A stretch of 64,000 bases of DNA from the NCBI GenBank assembly GCA_965205505.1, contig CBDBHB010000009.1, positions 2,208,001 through 2,272,000 on the forward strand, read 5' to 3'. Under the pieces are notes generated by a model that searched no databases, had not been told where the DNA came from, and was given only the letters and a program-made list of their open reading frames with translations. This document shows positions 3,506 to 17,544 of the stretch, piece by piece (positions within the stretch are counted from its first letter, which is position 1; the number at the start of each line of letters is the position of its first letter). A program made the translations under genes and the position numbers. Origin of the DNA: Acidobacteriota bacterium (GTDB taxonomy: Bacteria > Acidobacteriota > UBA890 > WLXD01).

Positions 3506-4759
3506 TCAAGAATCTTGGAAGCCGATCTCTTCTCGCATTGTCGTGCGAGAGGCAGCCGCCCTGCCCACTCGTTGAATCGCCAATGCAAAAGCAGCCGTTC
3601 GCAGGTCGACATTCTTTTTCTGTGCAAGACTCCTGACCGCCCGGTAGGCTCGCCGCATGACCTTCTCAAGTTCCTTAACCACTCGGTCGTATTCCCAGCT
3701 GAATCGCTGGACGTTCTGAGCCCATTCGAAGTAACTGACGGTAACGCCACCGCCGTTGGCGAGGATGTCCGGCACTACCGTGACGCCACGTTCCAAAAGA
3801 ATCTCGTGGGCCTGGGGAGTAGTGGGGCCATTGGCTCCCTCGATCACGATCCTGGCCTGAACGTCCTTGGCGTTGTCCGCTGTGATCATGTTCTCGAGAG
3901 CCGCAGGGATCAGGATCTCCGCCGGCCAGGTGATGATCTCGGTGCCGTCGAAGGCATCGCCACGCGGAAAGCCGTGAACGGTCCCATGCTCCTTGACCCA
4001 ATCCGCCAGAGCCGACACGTCGAGCCCATCGACATTGTGGACGGCTCCAGCATGGTCGGCTACTGCCACGATCCTCCCCCCTTTTTCGGCAATGAGCCGG
4101 GCTGCGTTACTGCCCACGTTTCCAAATCCCTGTAGCGCGATGGTTCGACCTGCTAGTGGCAGGTCGTGATCGCCGAGTGCCTCCTCCAGGACGTACAACA
4201 CGCCACGTCCGGTAGCTTCCTCCCGGCCTGCCGATCCGAACAGATGAACCGGCTTCCCCGTGACCACCCCAGGTGAGAAACCCTCGTATTTCGAATACTC
4301 GTCCATGATCCACGCCATCACTTCAGCATTTGTGTTGACGTCAGGCGCGGGGACATCCAAGTTCGGGCCAATTACCTCCTTGATCTGACCCACGAAGGCA
4401 CGAGTGACGCGATCAAGTTCGGACTTCGAAAGCTGCGCCGGGTCGCAGTCGATACCCCCCTTAGCACCCCCGAATGGCACATTGGCGATGGCGGTCTTCC
4501 AGGTCATCAGATTGGCCAGAGCCGCCGCATGGTTCTCGTCCAGCGCGGGGTGGTACCGCAAGCCCCCCTTATAGGGCCCGCGAGTGTTGCTGTGTTGCAC
4601 CCGAAACCCGAGGAAGTGGAGTAGTTGGCCGCCGTCACTTTCGATTACGATCTCTACCTTGACCACCCGGCGTGGAGTAATCAGGATCTTGCGGACCCTT
4701 TCGGAGAGGCCGAGCAAATCGGCCGCCTTGTTGAAGTAGTGGTGACTCTCTTCAAGCAT
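3506..4759 (-). CDS. gdhA: Glu/Leu/Phe/Val dehydrogenase (glutamate dehydrogenase type)
   Basis: GPYKGGLRYHP, GGAKGG, DVPAPDVNT, QGFGNVG, EGANGP and PDILANGGGV motifs. Confidence 0.92.
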   Translation of the reverse strand: MLEESHHYFNKAADLLGLSERVRKILITPRRVVKVEIVIESDGGQLLHFLGFRVQHSNTRGPYKGGLRYHPALDENHAAALANLMTWKTAIANVPFGGAKGGIDCDPAQLSKSELDRVTRAFVGQIKEVIGPNLDVPAPDVNTNAEVMAWIMDEYSKYEGFSPGVVTGKPVHLFGSAGREEATGRGVLYVLEEALGDHDLPLAGRTIALQGFGNVGSNAARLIAEKGGRIVAVADHAGAVHNVDGLDVSALADWVKEHGTVHGFPRGDAFDGTEIITWPAEILIPAALENMITADNAKDVQARIVIEGANGPTTPQAHEILLERGVTVVPDILANGGGVTVSYFEWAQNVQRFSWEYDRVVKELEKVMRRAYRAVRSLAQKKNVDLRTAAFALAIQRVGRAAASRTTMREEIGFQDS

Positions 4760-4774: not shown

Positions 4775-5713
4775 TCACGGACCTGTGTCGTCGTCGCGAA
4801 AGAGCCATCCATCATAACCCCCGAGCTCAAGCCCACCGGCCCCTAAGGCGCTGTTGTTGAACCCGGCTCCGCTACGCTCCGCCGGCTTCAACAACAGCGC
4901 CTCCGGGGCCGGTGGTCGGTAGCCCAACGAGCTGTGCGGTCGCATGCGGTTGTACTGCTGCCTCCATCTCTCGATCAGAACCTTTGCCTCCTTGAGCGTG
5001 TAGAAGATCTCGCCGTTGAGCAGCTCGTCTCGGAGCTTGCCGTTGAAGCTCTCCACGTAGCCGTTCTCCCACGGCGAGCCCGGCTCGATGAACAGCGTGC
5101 CCACACCGAGCCTACCGAGCCAGTCGCGAACCGCCTCGGCGGTGAACTCCGGTCCGTTATCGGACCGGATGTGCTCAGGTATGCCCCGGTGCACGAACAA
5201 CCACCCGAGCCGCTCGAGCACGTCCTCACAGTTGAGCTTCCGTGCCACGTCGATCGCCAGGCTTTCTCGTGTGTACTCATCGACGATCGTCAGCAGCCTC
5301 ATAGCCCGACCCTCGTGCGTCCGGTGATGAACGAAGTCATACGCCCAGACGTGATCTTTGCGCTGTGGTCGCAGCCGGATGCACGAGCCATCGCTGAGCC
5401 ACAGCCGGGCTCGTTTGGGCTGCTTTGTCGGTACTTTCAGCCCCTCACGCCTCCAGATACGCTGCACTCGTTTGTGGTTCACCCACCAGCCCTCCATACG
5501 CAACAACGCCGTCACTCGCCGATACCCGTAGCGCCCGTATTGTCGGGCTAGATCCACGATCCGCTCCGTCAACATCTGCTCATCGCCCGGTTCTCTTGGC
5601 ATGTACCTGTGTGTCGTGCGTGGTTGTTTCAGTACCCGGCACGCCCGCCTCTCGGAGACGCCCAGCCGCCCCTGTACATGCGCCACCGCCTCGCGCCGTC
5701 GAGCTGGGCTCAG
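4775..5713 (-). CDS. IS3 transposase OrfB
   Basis: [35 protein letters not shown] and RPHSSLGY motifs. Expressed by frameshift from orfA. Confidence 0.85.
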
Positions 5714-6054
5714 AAGTTTCCCTCCGCGACTTCCTTCAGGATCGACAGGTCGAGCTCTTTCTCCGCCACCAGTTTCTTGAGCCGGGCGTTTTCTTTCTCC
5801 AGCTGCTTGAGCCTTCTGGCCTGGTTGACCTTCAGCCCCCCGTACTCCCGCCGCCACCGATAGTAGGTGTGCTCGGTGATCGCTAGCTTGCGGCAGGCAT
5901 CCTTGACCGTCCCGCCTTGCGCCTGCTCCACTTCAGCCTCCCGGAGCTTGCGTACGATCTGCTCGGCGCTGTGCCTCTTCGTCGGCATTCTGACCTCCCC
6001 TTTTCGACCCAGATCGTGAGATTACCTCTGGATCCGTTTTGGGGGGTCAGGTCA
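4840..6054 (-). mobile_element. IS3-family element, right end eroded
   Basis: IRL TGACCTGACCCCCC ends at 6054. orfA and orfB are joined by a GGGAAAC -1 frameshift site. No clear IRR, so the left boundary is approximate. Confidence 0.85.
5710..5988 (-). CDS. IS3 transposase OrfA
   Basis: [14 protein letters not shown]...[11 protein letters not shown]...[13 protein letters not shown]. Confidence 0.88.
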
Positions 6055-6104
6055 GGCACCGTGTTACTGAGATAAGACGTGGTACTAACCGCGGGGTCAG
6101 GTCA
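6055..6104 (+). mobile_element. Isolated IS3 right-end fragment
   Basis: Reverse complement of the IS end near 21031-21075. Terminates in GGGGTCAGGTCA. Confidence 0.75.
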
Positions 6105-6434: not shown

Positions 6435-7619
6435 TTAACTCGCACCGCCCTCAACAACGGTGAAGCGTCGGCGCTTGGCGGCGCGGATCGTCTCGTCAAG
6501 ACGGCTCATCGCCCGTTCGCGCTGAGAGATCATCACGTGGCCGTAGAGGTCGCCGGTGATCTGCACGCTGCTGTGGCCGAGTTGCTCGCTCGTGTACTTG
6601 AGGCCTTCGCCCTGGCGTAGCAGCAGGCTGGCGAAGGTGTGACGCAGGCTGTGCAGTGTGATGCCCTCACGCAGGCCAGCGCGCTCGCGCAGAGGCCTGA
6701 AGACGCGTCGGTACCAGGAGTTGGGATCGTGCGGTTTACCGGTGGAAGTGCGAAAGACGAAGTCGCTGTGCATCGGCGGGTTCGCCTTCCGGTGTCGTCT
6801 CAGCGCGTCGATTACTGAGGCGGGAGCGTCGACGGTTCGTTCCGAGCTCGAGGTCTTCGTCTCCGTGACCCTTCCGTTGTAGACCGAGCGTCGTACGTGG
6901 ACCCGAGCACCGTGGTCCTGATGAGCCTCAACGTCATGCCACTTCAAGCCGAACGCCTCGCCTCGACGAAGCCCGAGAAACAACATGACATGGATGAGGG
7001 CGTTCGCTTCGCAATCCTCTGAGGTGGCCGCGAGCAACACCGCCATGTCGTCTTCTTCGAGGAACTCGGCTTCCCTCTTTCGCACTTTGAGCCTCTGTTG
7101 TCCGACAAGGGGATCGCCGGCAAGGTAGGCGCGGGCAGGGTGCCGAGCCCACTTGAAGATCTGCCGCGCGAGCGTTAAGACGTTGTTGAAGCTCTTCCGC
7201 GCCATATCGCCCGCATCGACCTTCTCGGCAAGACCAGCTCGCCACTCCGCCATGACCGTCGGCGTAAGTCGATCGCTTCGGTACCGGCCCAGGCCTCCGG
7301 CGTACTCAACGTCGTCAACCTCTGGGGCGAGGTGGACCCTGACAAGGCAGGTTGCCGTCGCCGCCGTGCTGGCTCGGACTTCACCCAGCTTGACGCGCGT
7401 ATCGAGGTCCTCGACCCACGCAGCGAAGACATCCTTCATGAGCTCTGGCTGCACTTTTTGAAAGGTCCCGTCCTTGACCTTCTTCTGAGCCTCCACGAGG
7501 AATGCGTCGGCGTCCTTTCGGCGTTTGAAGCACTTGCCGTGCTGTTTGCCAGCCTGGTCTCGCCAGTACGCATACCAGCGCGGTCCGGAAATCGTCAGTC
7601 GCTTGTGGATGCTCGCCAT
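6435..7619 (-). CDS. Phage-type tyrosine integrase
   Basis: N-terminal arm-binding region plus GLRRGE, TKT, HSLRHTFAS, QLGHS and TGDLYGH catalytic motifs. Confidence 0.93.
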   Translation of the reverse strand: MASIHKRLTISGPRWYAYWRDQAGKQHGKCFKRRKDADAFLVEAQKKVKDGTFQKVQPELMKDVFAAWVEDLDTRVKLGEVRASTAATATCLVRVHLAPEVDDVEYAGGLGRYRSDRLTPTVMAEWRAGLAEKVDAGDMARKSFNNVLTLARQIFKWARHPARAYLAGDPLVGQQRLKVRKREAEFLEEDDMAVLLAATSEDCEANALIHVMLFLGLRRGEAFGLKWHDVEAHQDHGARVHVRRSVYNGRVTETKTSSSERTVDAPASVIDALRRHRKANPPMHSDFVFRTSTGKPHDPNSWYRRVFRPLRERAGLREGITLHSLRHTFASLLLRQGEGLKYTSEQLGHSSVQITGDLYGHVMISQRERAMSRLDETIRAAKRRRFTVVEGGAS

Positions 7620-10955: not shown

Positions 10956-11543
10956 ATGTCGATCATGCCAACCTTCGCCGCACCCCGTACTCGAGAAGGG
11001 ACACCTTGTTGCCGGTGTGTGGCTGCAGGGGCGCTGTGCTACCAGCATCGCCACCGGCAAAAGACGCAAAAGACGCAGCTTAAAAAGAGCCAGAAGCGCC
11101 GGGCGAGAGCTGCCAGGAAGACGACGAAGTTCACCGCGCGCCGGAGAGCTCGTTACCTGGAACTGCTGGCGAGCGGTGCGCTGCGCGGTGCAGCCGCGAA
11201 GGCCGTTGGCGTTGGCCGCAGCACCCCGCTGCGGGCAATGCGCGACGAGCCCGACTTTGCTGCCGCGGTCGAAGAAGCCGAGATGCAGGCAGACTCGGAG
11301 GTTCAGCGAGCACTGTTCCTAGCGGCCACGGAAGACCGGAATGTCACCGCGATGCAGGTGTGGCTGTACAACCGCGTACCGGGCGCGTGGGTGAATTCGC
11401 AGCGACGCGAAGTACACCACAAGATCTCGGACTCTGAACGTGTGCGTTTTGCGCAGGCGGCGGCCACGGCGGGGCTCAATGAGTCTCAGATCGAGACGCT
11501 TGCGCGGGCTCTTGAAGGTGCCGACGAGGACACGGAGCAGTGA
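10956..11543 (+). CDS. Terminase small subunit-like protein (HTH)
   Basis: AAAKAVGVGRST HTH, DEPDFAAAVEEA and NVTAMQVWLYNRVP. Coupled to TerL by GTGA. Start uncertain. Confidence 0.7.
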   Translation: MSIMPTFAAPRTREGTPCCRCVAAGALCYQHRHRQKTQKTQLKKSQKRRARAARKTTKFTARRRARYLELLASGALRGAAAKAVGVGRSTPLRAMRDEPDFAAAVEEAEMQADSEVQRALFLAATEDRNVTAMQVWLYNRVPGAWVNSQRREVHHKISDSERVRFAQAAATAGLNESQIETLARALEGADEDTEQ

Positions 11544-12982
11544 CGATGACCACGGCTCCCGCGCACACGGCACGGCTGCTGCGCGAGATCGGGGCCGCGC
11601 GCGGCGACGGCACGCTGGGCCAGTTCGTGCGCCGCGCCTGGCGCATCGTGGAACCGCACACGGACTACGTTCATAGCTGGCACATCGAGGCGTTGTGCGA
11701 GGTGCTGGAATCCGTGAGCGCTGGCGACATCCCGCGCCTGATCGTCAACGTGCCGCCGGGCACCATGAAATTGCTGCTGGTGTCAGTGTTCTGGCCGGCG
11801 TGAGAGTGGGCCGAGAGGCCGGGCCTGCGCTACCTCGCCGCGTCCTACGGCTCGGACCTGTCGCGGCGTGACAACTTGCGGCTGCGCGGGGTGATCGCGT
11901 CGCCGTGGTATCGGGACTACTGCGGCCTCCGGCTCGTCGAGGATCAGAACACGAAGACGCGCATGAACACCACAGCCGGCGGCTGGCGCATCGCCACGTC
12001 GGTAGGCGGTGTGGGAACCGGCGAGCACCCTGACCGGATCATCATCGACGACCCGATCACAGCCGCTAACGCGCGATCCTTAACCGAGCGGCAGGCGGTA
12101 CTGGACTGGTTCACGCAAACAGTGAGTACGCGCGGCGTCGCACGCGACAGCCGCACCGTGGTCGTAATGCAACGGTTCCACGAGCAGGATTTGGCCGGGC
12201 ACCTGCTGAATATGGGGAGCTGGCGGCATGTGTGCTTTCCCATGCGGTTCGAGCCTGAACGTTCCGATCCTTACGACGTGCGCACCGAGGCCGGCGAGCT
12301 GTTGTGGCCGGCGCTGTTTCCCGAGGCGGCCGTGCGTCAACTCGAACGCGATCTCGGGCCGTATGGAACCGCCGGGCAGTTGCAACAGCGGCCAGCGCCG
12401 CAAGGTGGCGGGCTGTTCAAGCGCGATTGGTTCGAGATCGTTGACGCGGCGCCGATTGATGCGCGGCGCTGTCGTGCATGGGACACCGCGAGCACCGAGG
12501 CCGGCGGTGACTACACCGCCGAAGTTCGCATGGCGAAGACGGCCACCGGGCTGTACTTCATCGAGCACGTCTACCGTGCCCAGAAGTCAGCGCATGGCGT
12601 GGACGTGGCGATTCGCTCGCTCGCCAGCAGTGACGGCACCGCGTGCCTGATCCGCGAAGAGCAAGAGCCCGGCTCCAGCGGCAAGGCTGTGATCGAGGCG
12701 CGACGGCGGGTTCTCGCGGGACACGATTACGGCGGCGATCGGGCGACGGGTGACAAGGTTGTGAGGGCGGGTCCGCTGCGCTCGCAAGCCGAAGGCGGCA
12801 ACGTGAAGCTCGTGCGCGGCGACTGGAACGAAGAGCTTCTGCAAGAGCTGGAGAGCTTTCCGTATGGCGCCCACGATGACCAGGTGGACGCGGCCGCGCT
12901 CGCCTTCAACACGCTGGCCGAGCCGCCGAAGAAGGTGAAGCGAGGCGGGACGTTTGGCCGGGCTTATCGGCGGGACTGGTGA
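11540..12982 (+). pseudogene. Terminase large subunit interrupted by an in-frame TGA (11801-11803)
   Basis: RLIVNVPPGTMK, FWPA*EW, IIIDDP, VMQRFHEQDL, AWDTA and HDDQVDA. Both ORFs are in one frame. Confidence 0.85.
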
Positions 12983-13197: not shown

Positions 13198-13493
13198 CGC
13201 TCCGTGAACTCCACCGGCTGGTCGGCACCGAATGGCTGGGCAGCCGCGAGTACGGCGGCCAGCTGCATCTGCACGAGGCCGGGAGCGTGTCGGTGGTGGT
13301 CGTTTGCCGGCCGGTGTAATAGTCCGCACGGCAATCCCGTCGCACGACTACTGGAGGCGCACATGGCCGACCGGCGTCGTCTTGGGGGTACTGCGAAGAC
13401 TGCTGGTAGGCATTTTAGGGTGCCGGTTGCCTGCTGTCAGCACCGGATGCCGGTGATCGTCGGGGGGCGGGTGGACCTGCTGGACGTGGGGTG

Positions 13494-13522
13494 TTGACAT
13501 ACGATAAATTACTTATGATAAT
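13494..13522 (+). promoter_or_regulatory. sigma70-type promoter for the Cre-like recombinase
   Basis: TTGACA(13494)-17 bp-GATAAT(13517). The -10 lies inside the palindrome. Confidence 0.65.
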
Positions 13523-13541
13523 TAATCTTATCATAAGTAAT
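13508..13541. promoter_or_regulatory. loxP-like 34-bp recombination site (13-8-13)
   Basis: ATTACTTATGATA-ATTAATCT-TATCATAAGTAAT has perfect inverted arms and an asymmetric spacer, directly 5' of a Cre-like gene. Confidence 0.8.
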
Positions 13542-14544
13542 GACCCTCGAGATGAGCCCCATGACAACCCCCTCCAACAGTCGGGTTCCGAGCCTCCGGC
13601 CGGCCCCGGAGTCGGGCTCCGTTCCGGCCCGTGCCGCCCGCGATGCCGCCGCAACCCTGGCGGCCGCCTCGATGTCCGACAACACGCGCCGCGCCTACAC
13701 CGGCGCGCTGCGCCGCCTCGAGGCCTGGCTCGATGGCACCCCGCTCACCGACAATTCCCTCGCCGTCTATCTGGGCTCGCTGTTCGAGGCCGGCCGCTCG
13801 CCGGCGACGGCCTCAATGATCGTTGCGGCCGTACGGGCGCAGTACCGCCTCAGTGGAGAGCCCTCGCCCGTAGGCGAGGCCACGGCACGGGTTCTGGCCG
13901 GGTTCCGCCGCACTGGAGCTGAACGCTCGCGCGGACCGGCCACCGGCGTGCAATGGGGCCAGGCCGACGCTGCGGCCGCCGTTGCCGCCAACGGCTCCAA
14001 GAGCAACCACGGCTTGCGCGACGGGGCCATCGTCGCGGTCGGCTCGGCGGCGATGCTCCGGGTCTCGGAGCTGTCCGCGCTGCGCTGGAGCGACATCGAG
14101 GCCGACGGCGATCACACGATCACACTGCGCCGCTCCAAGACGGATCAAGAGGGGGCCGGAGTGACGCTCTACATCGGCGAGCCAACGGTGGCACGCCTGG
14201 AGGCCTGGCATGAGGCGCTGGGGGGGATCGGTGGTGACACCGGGCCCGACGCACCGGTGTTCGTGCGGTTGCACAAGGGCGGGCAGCGTGCGGGCTCCGA
14301 GCCGATCTCGGCCACGGCGCTGCGCGCCATTATCGCCCGGCGCTGCGCCAACGCGGGCGTGGAAGGCCGGGTGTCGGGCCACTCGCTGCGCATCGGTGCC
14401 GCACAGGACCTCGCCGCCGCGGGCGCTTCCCTGGTTGAGATGCAGCAGGCAGGCCGCTGGCTCTCGCCCACCATGCCGGCACGCTACGCTCGCGGACAGC
14501 TCGCCACCCGGGGTGCTGTGGCGCGGCTGCGCTTCGGCCAGTAG
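13540..14544 (+). CDS. Cre-like tyrosine recombinase
   Basis: SDNTRRAY, LRVSEL, RSKTDQ, SGHSLRIGAAQDL, AGRW and PARYAR give the R-K-H-R-W-Y catalytic set with the Cre-type Trp. The real start is probably ATG 13552 or 13561. Confidence 0.9.
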   Translation: MTLEMSPMTTPSNSRVPSLRPAPESGSVPARAARDAAATLAAASMSDNTRRAYTGALRRLEAWLDGTPLTDNSLAVYLGSLFEAGRSPATASMIVAAVRAQYRLSGEPSPVGEATARVLAGFRRTGAERSRGPATGVQWGQADAAAAVAANGSKSNHGLRDGAIVAVGSAAMLRVSELSALRWSDIEADGDHTITLRRSKTDQEGAGVTLYIGEPTVARLEAWHEALGGIGGDTGPDAPVFVRLHKGGQRAGSEPISATALRAIIARRCANAGVEGRVSGHSLRIGAAQDLAAAGASLVEMQQAGRWLSPTMPARYARGQLATRGAVARLRFGQ

Positions 14545-14579
14545 CGTGGCCGCCCACAATCCGCTCTCTCTGGCACCCA

Positions 14580-15215
14580 GTGCTCATCCGGGCAGCACGT
14601 GGTTGCGATTTGCGCGGGGGCGCAAGTACCTTCCGGGCTACGAGCGAAATCTCCCACCACCAGCCATCGCAAAGCTTGCGTGACCGCATGGCCCGTCTCG
14701 AGGGTAAAGTCGAAACGCTGATCGCGGCGTTCACGAAACCCGGTACAAGAGCCGCAGCTGCGGTGGTGTTTCTGGCGGCCGGCAGCCTGGCCGTCGCTGC
14801 GCAGGAACGAGGTCCGGACCGCGAGCCGCAGATCGCTGCGCAGTACCGCGAGGAGCTGCAGCCGGACGTTATGCTCGTTGACAAGCTCGGCCGGCAGCGG
14901 CCAGGCAATCGCTGCGGTACGCCGCCGTATACGGGGCCGCTGGACCCGGTTGCTTATCTATCGGACGACCGCGCCGCACCCACCGAGGTGCCAGTGTGGT
15001 TTCACGTGCTGTACCACAGAAAGAAGGGCGCGGACGTTGGCCGCGTTTCGGAGGCGGCAATCGAGGAGCAGATGGACGTGCTGAACGCATCCCTCAAGCG
15101 GCACGGGCTCACCTTCATGCTCGCCGGCATCACGTACACGAACAAGAAGTTCTGGTCGCGGCGGTGCTCCAAGCACGGGGCGGAGCTCCACGATTCGCTT
15201 CCACTGCCATTCTAG
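14580..15215 (+). pseudogene. Chimeric ORF with a truncated M43 (pappalysin-like) metalloprotease N-terminus
   Basis: RCGT, VPVWFHVL and IEEQMDVLN motifs, ending before any HExxH. Confidence 0.55.
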
Positions 15216-15261: not shown

Positions 15262-16252
15262 ACTTAGCCATAGCGCCTCCAGCCCAGCCAGTCGCGAACG
15301 GCCGCGGCAGTGAACTCAGGTCCGTTATCCGACCTGATGTGATCGGGTATTGCCCGGTGCACGAACAGCCACCCGAGCCGCTCGAGCACTTGCTCGGAGT
15401 TGAGCTTGCGCGCCACGTCGATCGCCAGGCTCTCGCGGGTGTACTCGTCCACGATCGTCAACATCCTCATGGACCGGCCATCGTGCGTCCGGTCATGGAT
15501 GAAGTCATACGCCCACACGTGGTTCTTGCGCTCCGGTCGCAGCCGGATACACGAGCCATCGTTGAACCAGAGCCGGGCTCGTTTGGGCTGCCTCTTCGGC
15601 ACTTTCAGGCCTTCGCTACGCCAGATCCGCTGCACTCGTTTGTGGTTCACGAGCCAGCCCTCCATGCGCATCAACGCCGTCACCCTCCGGTACCCATAAC
15701 GTCCATACTCCCGAGCTAACTCCACGATCCTGTCCCTCACCAGTTGCTCGTCGTCCGCCGGCCTCGGCACGTATCGCGGTGTCGTCCTGGGCTGCCTGAG
15801 CACCCGGCAGGATCGTCTTTCGGTTACGCCCAGCTGCCGTCGTACGTGAGCTACCGCCTCGCGCCGACGTGCTGGGCTCAGAAGTTTCCCTCCGCGACCT
15901 CCTTGAGGATCGCCAGGTCGAGCTCCTTGTCCGCCACCAGCTTCTTGAGCCGGGAGTTGTCCTTCTCGAGCTGTTTGAGCTTCCGCGCCTGGTTCAGCTT
16001 CAGCCCGCCGTACTCGCGCCGCCACCGGTAGTAGGTGTGCTCGGTTATCGCTAGCTTGCGACAGGCATCCTTGACCGTCGCGCCTCGCGCCAGCTCCACT
16101 TAACCCTCCCGGAGCTTGCGCACGATCTGCTCGGCGCTGTGCCTCTTGACCGGCATTCTGACCTCCCTTTCTGGTTGACCCAAACCCCGAAAACGGTGCC
16201 AGGTTGATGTTTAGGAAATCGGTGTACCGTCGTCCTCCAAGCAGGAGGACAG

Positions 16253-16519
16253 ATGAAGCGGAAGAGGTACACGGACGAGCAGATCGCCTACGCGCTGCGG
16301 CAGGCTGAGGCGGGCACGCCGATCAAGGAGGTGTGTCGCAAGCTGGGCGTCAGCGAGCAGACGTTCTACACGTGGCGCCGCAAGTTCGCCGGGATGGGCG
16401 TGGCCGAACTTCGGGAGCTACGACAACTCCGCCATGAGAACCGGAAGTTGAAGCAGCTGGTGGCAGATCTGAGCTTGGACAAGCACATGCTCCAGGAGGT
16501 GCTGTCAAAAAAGGTGTGA
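16253..16519 (+). CDS. IS3 transposase OrfA
   Basis: [18 protein letters not shown]...[14 protein letters not shown], with RBS GGAGG. Confidence 0.9.
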
Positions 16520-17370
16520 AGCCGGCGCGCAAGCGCGAGGTGGTGCGGTACCTGCAGGACGGGTTCCGTGTCAGTGAGCGTCGAGCGTGTCGGCTGATCG
16601 AGTTGTCGCGCACCAGCCATCGGTATCAGAGCACAAGGACGGACGACCCCGTGCTGCGGCGTCGTCTTGGCGAGCTCGCCGCGGCGCGTCCGCGGTTCGG
16701 GTATCGGAGGTTGTGCGTGTTGCTACGCCGCGAGGGATGGGTAGTGAACCAGAAGCGCGTGTATCGGATCTATCGAGAGGAGGGGCTGGAGGTACGGACC
16801 AAAAAGCGACGGCGCAAGCGGGCGAGTCACATACGGCTTGTGCTGCCGCCCGCAGAGCGGCCCAACGAGCGCTGGAGCATGGACTTCGTGACCGATCGGC
16901 TCGAGAGTGGCCGGCCGTTTCGGGTGCTGACGGTGGTCGATCAGTTTAGCCGTGAATGTCCGTTACTTGAGCCGGGCGTGTCGATGACCGGCAAGGCGGT
17001 GGCTGGAGCACTCGAGCGGCTGTCGTTTGCCGGGCCGTTGCCACGGGTCATCACCGTCGACAATGGCTCAGAATTCTACTCCCAGGCGATGGACTCCTGG
17101 GCGTACCGGAGAGGCGTGCAGTTGGAGTTCATTCGGCCGGGAAAGCCCGTGGAGAATGCGTTCATCGAGAGTTTCAACGGACGGCTTCGCGACGAATGCC
17201 TCAACGCCAACCTGTTCTTCTCGATCGATGACGCGCGCCGAAAACTGGAGGCTTGGAGGCTTGATTACAATACCCACAGACCACACAGCTCACTGAACGA
17301 TCGAACTCCTACGGAGTTCGCCAGGGGCTGGCAACCGGAGGCTTCGGAACACCGAATCCTAAACCTCTGA
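16516..17370 (+). CDS. IS3 transposase OrfB
   Basis: [28 protein letters not shown] and RPHSSL motifs. Confidence 0.9.
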
Positions 17371-17544
17371 CTGGTACTGATTTCGGGGTGGGGTCATGGT
17401 CCCAGATCGTGTGATTACATCTGGACCCGTTTTCGGGGGTCAGGTCAAGATCGCTCGGCAGCTGTCGGTACCGCGATCCACCGAGTCCCAAACTGGGCGT
17501 CGCTACGGAGCCCCTATGCAGGGACAACGACGCGCCGGTTGGGA

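Follow-up and report, generated by a model that had tools for sequence, protein, structure and literature searches.

A 64,000-nucleotide stretch of an Acidobacteriota genome (positions 2,208,001–2,272,000 of contig CBDBHB010000009.1, assembly GCA_965205505.1; hereafter the window) contains a perfect 34-bp palindrome, ATTACTTATGATA-ATTAATCT-TATCATAAGTAAT, that adjoins an intact gene for a Cre-type tyrosine recombinase. Our results suggest, with a probability of roughly 0.7, that this palindrome is the cognate lox-type target of the adjoining recombinase, left from a phage or plasmid-like element; the site, its uniqueness, the protein family and the company of related sites and genes are shown here, while binding, recombination and autorepression are inferred. 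This reading draws on the record of the same prediction logic, which gave eight recombining pairs among the 17 tested in a mining study that predicted ~500 Cre-type pairs (PMC10250229). The features concerned are as follows.

13508–13520, + strand: left 13-bp arm of the putative lox-type site, ATTACTTATGATA, read from the sequence; 9 of its 13 bases, the same ones in each comparison, agree with the loxP arm and the rox left arm
13521–13528, + strand: spacer ATTAATCT, 8 bp, asymmetric, presumed crossover region
13529–13541, + strand: right 13-bp arm of the putative lox-type site, TATCATAAGTAAT, perfect complement of the left arm
13540–14544, + strand: Cre-type tyrosine recombinase, 334 amino acids (327 from the ATG at 13561), identified by open reading frame (ORF), Pfam, PDB search, tree and model

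The 34-bp palindrome

The arms of the site at 13508–13541 pair at 13/13 positions and its spacer differs from its own reverse complement, exactly as the preliminary description of this DNA had claimed. The same description had called the site an AT-rich spike in GC-rich DNA and had counted nine matches of 13 to the loxP arm; both statements stand, with G or C at five of the 34 bases against a GC fraction of 0.668 in the surrounding kilobase, and with the arm comparison repeated against the P1 record. The left arm ends in GATA beside the spacer and has T at arm position 7. This geometry, with two 13-bp arms and an asymmetric 8-bp spacer less than 1 kb from the gene, fits what is expected of a lox-type site.

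In a list of the 13-8-13 repeats of the whole 64 kb that have 11 or more positions paired, the site was the sole one to reach 13/13; the two others score 11/13, are GC-rich and are unrelated to it. The site is matched once in the window with up to three mismatches, and none of 100 dinucleotide shuffles contained any match. The 5.98-Mb genome contains one exact copy, which stays the sole match with up to seven mismatches allowed over both arms, while the single 13-mer arm has two one-mismatch matches, a number close to chance by our own estimate. The strand of the site folds at −9.7 kcal/mol, a trivial consequence of the inverted repeat itself.

A Cre-type recombinase

The assignment of ORF 13540–14544 to the Cre-type tyrosine recombinases is supported by sequence, catalytic residues, fold and tree. 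The frame is open for 334 codons and intact. Its ATG at 13540 overlaps the right arm by two bases, but translation could equally well start at one of two further in-frame ATGs, at 13552 or 13561, and the start at 13561 (MTTPS...) aligns best with the closest fetched homolog (MTDPG...). The Pfam Phage_integrase domain is recognised at 3e-14 (53.6 bits, cut-off 27.1), and the length agrees with the 300–400 amino acids, including a catalytic domain, that are typical of Cre-type enzymes. In a PDB sequence search at E ≤ 0.01 all 17 matches were Cre or the Cre-derived Tre (best 9.7e-16), with no Xer, lambda Int or integron integrase among them. The HMMER alignment places R174, K200, H281, R284, W307 and Y316 opposite Cre R173, K201, H289, R292, W315 and Y324, and these six catalytic residues are invariant across 40 aligned family members. 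Cre residues T258, R259, E262 and E266 set target specificity; the residues aligned to them here are A, T, R and A.

An AlphaFold model computed on the 40-member family alignment has a mean predicted local distance difference test score (pLDDT) of 85.1. When it was compared with the PDB by Foldseek, every listed row through rank 31 was a Cre or Tre chain, with template-modelling (TM) scores of 0.61–0.71 over 294–335 columns and ~24% identity to Cre in the structural alignment; XerA came next at 0.46, and IntI and lambda Int also scored lower. The earlier claim of an intact Cre-like recombinase is thereby borne out on reading frame, catalytic residues and fold.

A maximum-likelihood tree of 23 rows, rooted at the midpoint only, places the recombinase in a clade of 14 environmental sequences (support 97/97). 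The sister clade comprises P1 Cre, D6 Dre and three plasmid recombinases (91/88), so that the protein groups with Cre and Dre, as the proposed phylogeny was to ask, and is not nested within them. Both clades are joined at 95/91, and the three outgroups, two Xer-like proteins of the same genome and the phage-type integrase of the window, split off at 99/98.

Of 8000 scored candidates, 661 proteins belong to the family at E ≤ 0.001; identity is 89% for the closest of them and 68% for the next. It is patchily distributed, being found in 0/4 same-genus genomes, 3/41 relatives and 12/401 genomes of the phylum (the last two counts include the genome of the window itself). The loci of fetched homologs, designated below by L numbers, come from metagenome-assembled genomes (MAGs) labelled Latescibacterota, Binatia, Trueperaceae, Gammaproteobacteria, Poribacteria and others, and from metagenome contigs. 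Among phage proteins the best match is that of a Microcystis phage (33.9%) and the best named one is Dre (33.7% over residues 159–330, the C-terminal half). The best plasmid match reaches 37%, and 851 plasmid records match the recombinase, all at less than 60% identity; a scan of viral contigs for relatives found none.

Sites beside homologous genes

The comparative support for the proposed pairing comes from sites of related build beside homologous genes. Among nine distinct full-length homolog loci at 50–65% identity, six have a homologous site within ~120 bp upstream of the gene start. Arm symmetry is highest at L010 (GTTACTTGGTATA-ATATCCCT-TATAGAAAGTAAC, 11/13), followed by L011 (ATTACATCCGATA-ATTGCCCT-TATCAGACATAAT, 10/13) and L013 (ATTCCTTCCGATA-ATTCTCGT-TATCAGAAATAAT, 10/13), and weaker versions are found at L037 (9/13), L033 (9/13) and L031 (7/13). 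These sites emerged from reading the upstream sequences and then from core-motif and matrix scans; a strict upstream palindrome scan (arms of at least 10, at most one mismatch, spacers of 2–12) returned almost nothing in the homologs. Their common core is GATA, an 8-bp spacer starting with AT and ending with T, and then TATC. GATA-N8-TATC has only 29 occurrences in the 5.98-Mb genome, and the spacer pattern (AT at positions 1–2, T at position 8) is present in 12–13 of the 14 sites compared. The weight of the homolog sites rests on this common core and on their position, because a symmetry of 9/13 is common in control tiles.

The relationship extends beyond the closer loci. Among four plasmid and phage homologs at 32–37% identity, three have a 13-8-13 site of the same build no more than ~0.55 kb upstream; they include CTAACTTCGTATA-ATAGTTCT-TATACGAAGTCAT, ~150 bp upstream of a Pantoea plasmid homolog (32.4% identity), and a 13-8-13 palindrome ~520 bp upstream of the Microcystis phage homolog. 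When a scoring matrix built from eight sites was run on loci outside the building set, five of seven loci in genus g79 gave top matches of 28.5–36.9 bits to CTTCCGATA-N8-TATCGGAAG, with arm symmetry of 9–13 of 13, located 0.47–1.1 kb downstream of the recombinase gene and in opposite orientation. Four g79 genomes searched whole contain six such sites, 5/6 of them beside a recombinase gene; g79 has a degenerate site at the promoter and the near-perfect one elsewhere.

The two halves of the sites also change together. Over 14 sites, arms within a site are identical at 10.86 of 13 positions compared with 7.48 between sites, a value reached by none of 20,000 permutations, with the reservation that several of the sites had been picked for their symmetry, which inflates the statistic. 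The change that distinguishes the window arm (AT for CC or CT at positions 8–9) is present in both of its arms. Read from sequence, this co-variation fits a symmetric binder evolving with its site. No neighbour of the recombinase in the window recurs in any homolog locus, and the recombinase is the only gene found adjoining such sites across lineages; because it is their sole constant companion, it is supported as the binder.

Several observations weigh against the pairing of site and enzyme. L030 and L035, among the nine closer loci, are without a nearby site, and the sole candidate at L012 scores 7/13 and is 1.4 kb distant. No convincing site was found in seven g132 loci (41–44% identity) or in four of five Poribacteria loci. 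Arm symmetry of 9/13 alone is background, since control tiles reach it in 5–10 of 15–31 cases, and in most homologs the symmetry at the single locus (8–9 of 13) does not exceed that of the tiles. The strong g79 sites sit ~90 bp upstream of a conserved secreted-protein gene, and one such site-plus-gene unit, L065, is without a recombinase within 1.5 kb. A second site, which a genome scan might have revealed, was not found in the 5.98 Mb even when mismatches were allowed, and with a single site in the genome no intramolecular reaction is possible now; P1 too has one lox per genome, so that a single site does not exclude membership of the lox type. Lastly, contigs of four public runs show no recombination joint at 13508–13541, contigs being a poor detector of such joints. 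The expectation that homologs would carry a related upstream palindrome is thus realised in several independent lineages and in plasmid and phage relatives, but not in every homolog.

Comparison with known systems

The window pair resembles Cre/loxP in the two-domain fold, in the six catalytic residues and in having, upstream of the gene, a 34-bp target of 13-8-13 build whose spacer is asymmetric. With loxP read from the P1 record and rox from the D6 record, the loxP arm and the rox left arm each match the window arm at 9/13 positions, the same ones in both cases (AT.ACTT...ATA), and the rox right arm matches at 8/13. The loxP arm differs at positions 3 and 8–10, and the loxP spacer is unrelated. 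In the 13-8-13 frame rox reads ATAACTTTAAATA-ATTGGCAT-TATTTAAAGTTAG and has the core ATA|ATT...T|TAT in common with the window site, from which it differs in having AATA instead of GATA; the window site, moreover, overlaps a promoter.

The order of terminase genes, site and recombinase is similar to pacA-pacB-(immunity)-lox-cre of P1, and in D6 the annotated rox precedes dre by ~150 bp and follows the end of pacB at a distance of ~1.3 kb. This P1/D6-like terminase synteny occurs in no homolog locus; it is weak evidence and possibly a coincidence. P1 also differs in that loxP is located ~420 bp upstream of cre, behind the promoter P4cre, and not over a −10 element.

The pair agrees with the search criteria for mined Cre-type pairs (YR series, Vika, Panto, Nigri), namely 300–400 amino acids, the catalytic residues, a 13–15 bp palindrome, an 8-bp spacer and a distance of less than 1 kb (PMC10250229). 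Two features were described there for active targets, a G(T)-A-T(G)-A motif adjoining the spacer and a T as the seventh arm base, and the window site has both (PMC10250229). The window protein differs from the mined recombinases in belonging to a separate clade of uncultured bacteria, sister to the clade of Cre, Dre and plasmid enzymes. Orthogonality to loxP is plausible, given that four arm positions, the whole spacer and the residues aligned to Cre T258, R259, E262 and E266 differ; cross-reactions between quite different sites are reported in the same source (PMC10250229).

In TnpI/IRS of the Tn3-family elements Tn5401 and Tn4430, the recombinase gene likewise follows immediately behind its site, and the promoter lies inside that site (PMC7157771). 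TnpI belongs to another branch of the tyrosine recombinases, and scans of the window returned neither accessory direct repeats nor, among the window genes, a Tn3-type transposase; the neighbours are terminases, an ORF of no known family and IS3-type elements (IS, insertion sequence). ResD acts as both repressor and resolvase. ResD/rfsF of F-type plasmids is described as a further gene-adjacent system (PMC9412624). Xer/dif differs in its 11-6-11 geometry, against the 8-bp spacer found here, and in the mid-replichore position of the window site, the absence of the family from four of four congeners and the lack of a dif-like motif in the window.

Promoter overlap and possible autorepression

The site overlaps a sigma-70-like promoter that had been noted before and that a consensus scan recovered at 11 of 12 positions.

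13494–13522, + strand: sigma-70-like promoter, TTGACA-17-GATAAT (consensus scan, 11/12)

The −35 element TTGACA lies at 13494–13499 and the −10 element GATAAT at 13517–13522, the latter made up of four bases from the end of the left arm and two from the start of the spacer, such that the site covers both the −10 and the predicted transcript start. The scan returned two promoter sites in 1.9 kb, compared with a mean of 0.1 in shuffles; a divergent promoter-like site is located at 13440–13412. Homolog loci L010, L011 and L031 also have a matching −35 at a distance of 17–18 bp.

Occupancy of the left arm and spacer by the recombinase would be expected to lower transcription of its own gene. A precedent from another family is Tn5401, in which binding of TnpI to its own promoter-bearing site modulates the expression of tnpI and tnpA (PMC7157771). 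On the strength of the promoter overlap and this precedent autorepression is a reasonable proposal; we would give it about even odds, since GATAAT also belongs to sites that lie outside any promoter position. The recurrence of GATAAT in such sites counts against a regulatory role for the overlap, and the −10 may be a by-product of the site consensus.

Proposed mechanism and alternative explanations

By analogy with Cre/loxP, one recombinase monomer would bind each 13-bp arm, two bound sites would synapse as a tetramer, and Y316 would cleave so that strands are exchanged within the 8-bp spacer, whose asymmetry would determine in which direction the reaction runs. Circularisation or multimer resolution of a phage or plasmid-like element was probably the original role of the module, which would now be stranded as a single site and gene in a truncated prophage remnant. 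The mechanism is expected to be no different from that of known Cre-type pairs, and no new question is opened by it.

The alternative that survives best, and which we nevertheless regard as unlikely, is that the palindrome serves only as an operator. It would then regulate the promoter, bound by the recombinase or by a host factor, and would not, or would no longer, be a recombination substrate, the true target, if there was one, having been elsewhere in the lost part of the element. This would agree with the coverage of the −10 and the predicted transcript start, with the single copy in the genome, given that truncation of the prophage by IS elements could have removed another site, and with the arrangement in g79, where the degenerate site is at the promoter and the near-perfect one is elsewhere. 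The 13-8-13 build, the asymmetric spacer, the GATA motif and the 9/13 likeness to both loxP and rox are, however, marks of crossover sites and are unlike typical operators; lox and rox are themselves annotated upstream of cre and dre, and the Pantoea and Microcystis phage palindromes, ~150 and ~520 bp upstream, apparently lie outside the promoter position.

It is improbable that the palindrome is the operator of an unrelated regulator, such as a phage repressor, and stands next to the recombinase gene incidentally. In P1 and D6 the gene for the immunity repressor, together with its operators, does separate the terminase genes from lox or rox, and the divergent promoter-like site at 13440–13412 would suit a regulatory region. 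Against this, no regulator gene is conserved beside the sites, the window neighbours are unmatched in the homolog loci, the one small conserved ORF seen in g79 is confined to that genus, and sites of this type accompany the recombinase family in different phyla, on plasmids and in a phage.

Still less probable is a single-recombinase module for chromosome dimer resolution, with a dif-like site and domesticated by the host, even though each chromosome has one site, adjoining the gene, and a unit at L010 stands alone between leuS and mutL beside dif-like motifs. The site, at 2.22 Mb, is mid-replichore, cumulative GC skew along the contig having its peak near 2.86 Mb; extra gene copies are decayed, the window contains no dif-like CATAA-N6-TTATG motif, and the patchy occurrence, with 0/4 same-genus genomes and 12/401 of the phylum including its own, counts strongly against it.

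A chance palindrome or mere hairpin without a protein partner is very unlikely: AT-rich promoter regions can hold short repeats and the strand does fold, yet the shuffles, the uniqueness of the site in the 64 kb and in the 5.98 Mb, and the homologous sites adjoining homologous genes all speak against it. The cognate target of the adjoining Cre-type recombinase remains the preferred reading of the palindrome.

Significance

On the sequence evidence, the pair agrees with every computational criterion used for nominating Cre-type pairs and has comparative support in addition; it is one candidate among hundreds. The earlier suggestion of a new pair holds in that the protein belongs to a separate clade, but the pair joins a family for which ~500 pairs had already been predicted (PMC10250229). 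If active, it would add a Cre-type pair whose clade includes none of the enzymes in use so far, at ~24–34% identity to Cre and Dre, with an arm unlike that of loxP at 4 of 13 positions and an unrelated spacer; multiplexed genome engineering has a demand for such pairs, as does directed evolution, which needs them as starting material. The aligned family and its matched natural sites, with about a dozen arm variants and co-varying halves, also constitute a small data set on how specificity between protein and site changes. In the window, a lox-cre-like module has been kept intact inside a decaying, IS-riddled region.

Genomic context and public contigs

The site and gene are located in a higher-GC island (~8–15 kb), in which an integrase, an 800-codon ORF of no known family, the terminases, the site with the recombinase and an IS-cut ORF follow one another.

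6435–7619, − strand: phage-type tyrosine integrase, 394 amino acids, separate, apparently whole; at the left of the higher-GC island
10956–11543, + strand: small terminase subunit of the prophage remnant (phrog_309, 4.1e-13)
11540–12982, + strand: large terminase subunit with one in-frame stop at 11801–11803
14580–15215, + strand: ORF of no known family, cut by an IS3-type element
15264–17370, no strand assigned: two IS3-type elements (rve and HTH_21 domains), right boundary of the region

The statement that the neighbours of the recombinase are decayed applies to the large terminase, which has the in-frame stop after codon 87 and is otherwise whole, and to the downstream ORF, cut by the IS3-type element, but not to the integrase at 6435–7619. 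The similarity of ORF 14580–15215 to other copies ends where the IS3-type element begins, and the ORF is repeated elsewhere in the genome together with the 3′ end of the recombinase gene (93% over 14406–15190). Elsewhere in the genome there are a second copy of the recombinase gene, which is broken, and several 3′ fragments of it, all of them lacking the site; one of the fragments is co-repeated with ORF 14580–15215. Isolated 3′ fragments (residues ~285–334) at 70–90% identity are seen in many genomes.

Recombinase 3′ fragments: own genome, C9:2965944-2966779, C9:2999337-3000128 and others; other loci, L022–L025 and L039–L049

The IS elements of the window at 930–2302, 4853–6056 and 15282–17400 are present as dozens of near-identical copies in same-genus genomes, one of which has well over 40 listed copies of the 4853–6056 element.

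Three other studies have contigs across the site region. One contig spans 13218–13595 with one changed letter and one gap, and no difference was found inside the site among the contig rows listed. Another, 3.6 kb long, matches only from 13488 onward, which means that the unit has another upstream context there. None of the public runs listed as holders of the sequence is recorded as RNA. Two runs, each from a different study, include contigs in which 13297 is joined to 14516 on the opposite strand, with 44 letters on the shorter side; this joint would fit an inverted site-gene segment, or a mosaic with a paralog.

Variant sites and units at other loci

In the Poribacteria paralogs (35–39% identity) another conserved hairpin, CTTGTTAGG-N3-CCTAACAAG, is found ~100–130 bp upstream in place of the 13-8-13 site.

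Poribacteria hairpin: L015 2867–2891; L019 2880–2906; L020 2943–2964

The near-perfect g79 sites (L061 2919–2952, L053, L054, L060, L062 and L065) have identical arms and a spacer that differs in each copy, and the secreted-protein genes behind them are paralogous, at 59% identity. Similarity between these paralogs was considered as a possible crossover mark, had it ended inside the spacer; it starts 10–25 bp outside the site and lends no support. A conserved 60-amino-acid ORF between the g79 recombinase gene and the site was likewise considered as an alternative binder and set aside, being absent from the window, from the genome of the window and from the other loci.

At L011 two more 13-8-13 palindromes (2582–2615 and 4097–4130), of another arm type (CAG.TGCGCGATA) and with different spacers, flank the site-plus-recombinase unit. 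The genome of L011 has five CAG-type sites, of which the two checked (L072 and L074) are without a recombinase within 1.5 kb.

At L010 (2836–4053), in a Latescibacterota MAG, leuS and mutL enclose a solitary site-plus-recombinase unit of ~1.3 kb, which has dif-like CATAA-N6-TTATG motifs on both sides. Because the context is ever-changing and this unit stands alone, promoter, site and recombinase may tentatively be viewed as a self-contained mobile module of ~1.1–1.3 kb that spreads among uncultured, IS-rich bacteria of many phyla, a view that we hold to be doubtful. Such a module would be a mobile element of a minimal 'lox-cre cassette' kind, possibly owing its movement to Xer, acting at dif-like sites, or to its own enzyme, instead of being a leftover phage resolution system; copies within one genome have the same arms and different spacers, which would stop them from recombining together.

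Three relatives of the L010 genome have ~1.3 kb of other DNA at the leuS-mutL spot. At L083 (2838–4115) the spot is occupied by a Xer-like recombinase of 317 amino acids accompanied by a 13-8-13 palindrome of its own, CTAACCAACGATA-ATGACTGT-TATCGTTGGTTAA; dif-like motifs lie on both sides here too, and the spot looks like one for exchangeable dif-flanked modules.

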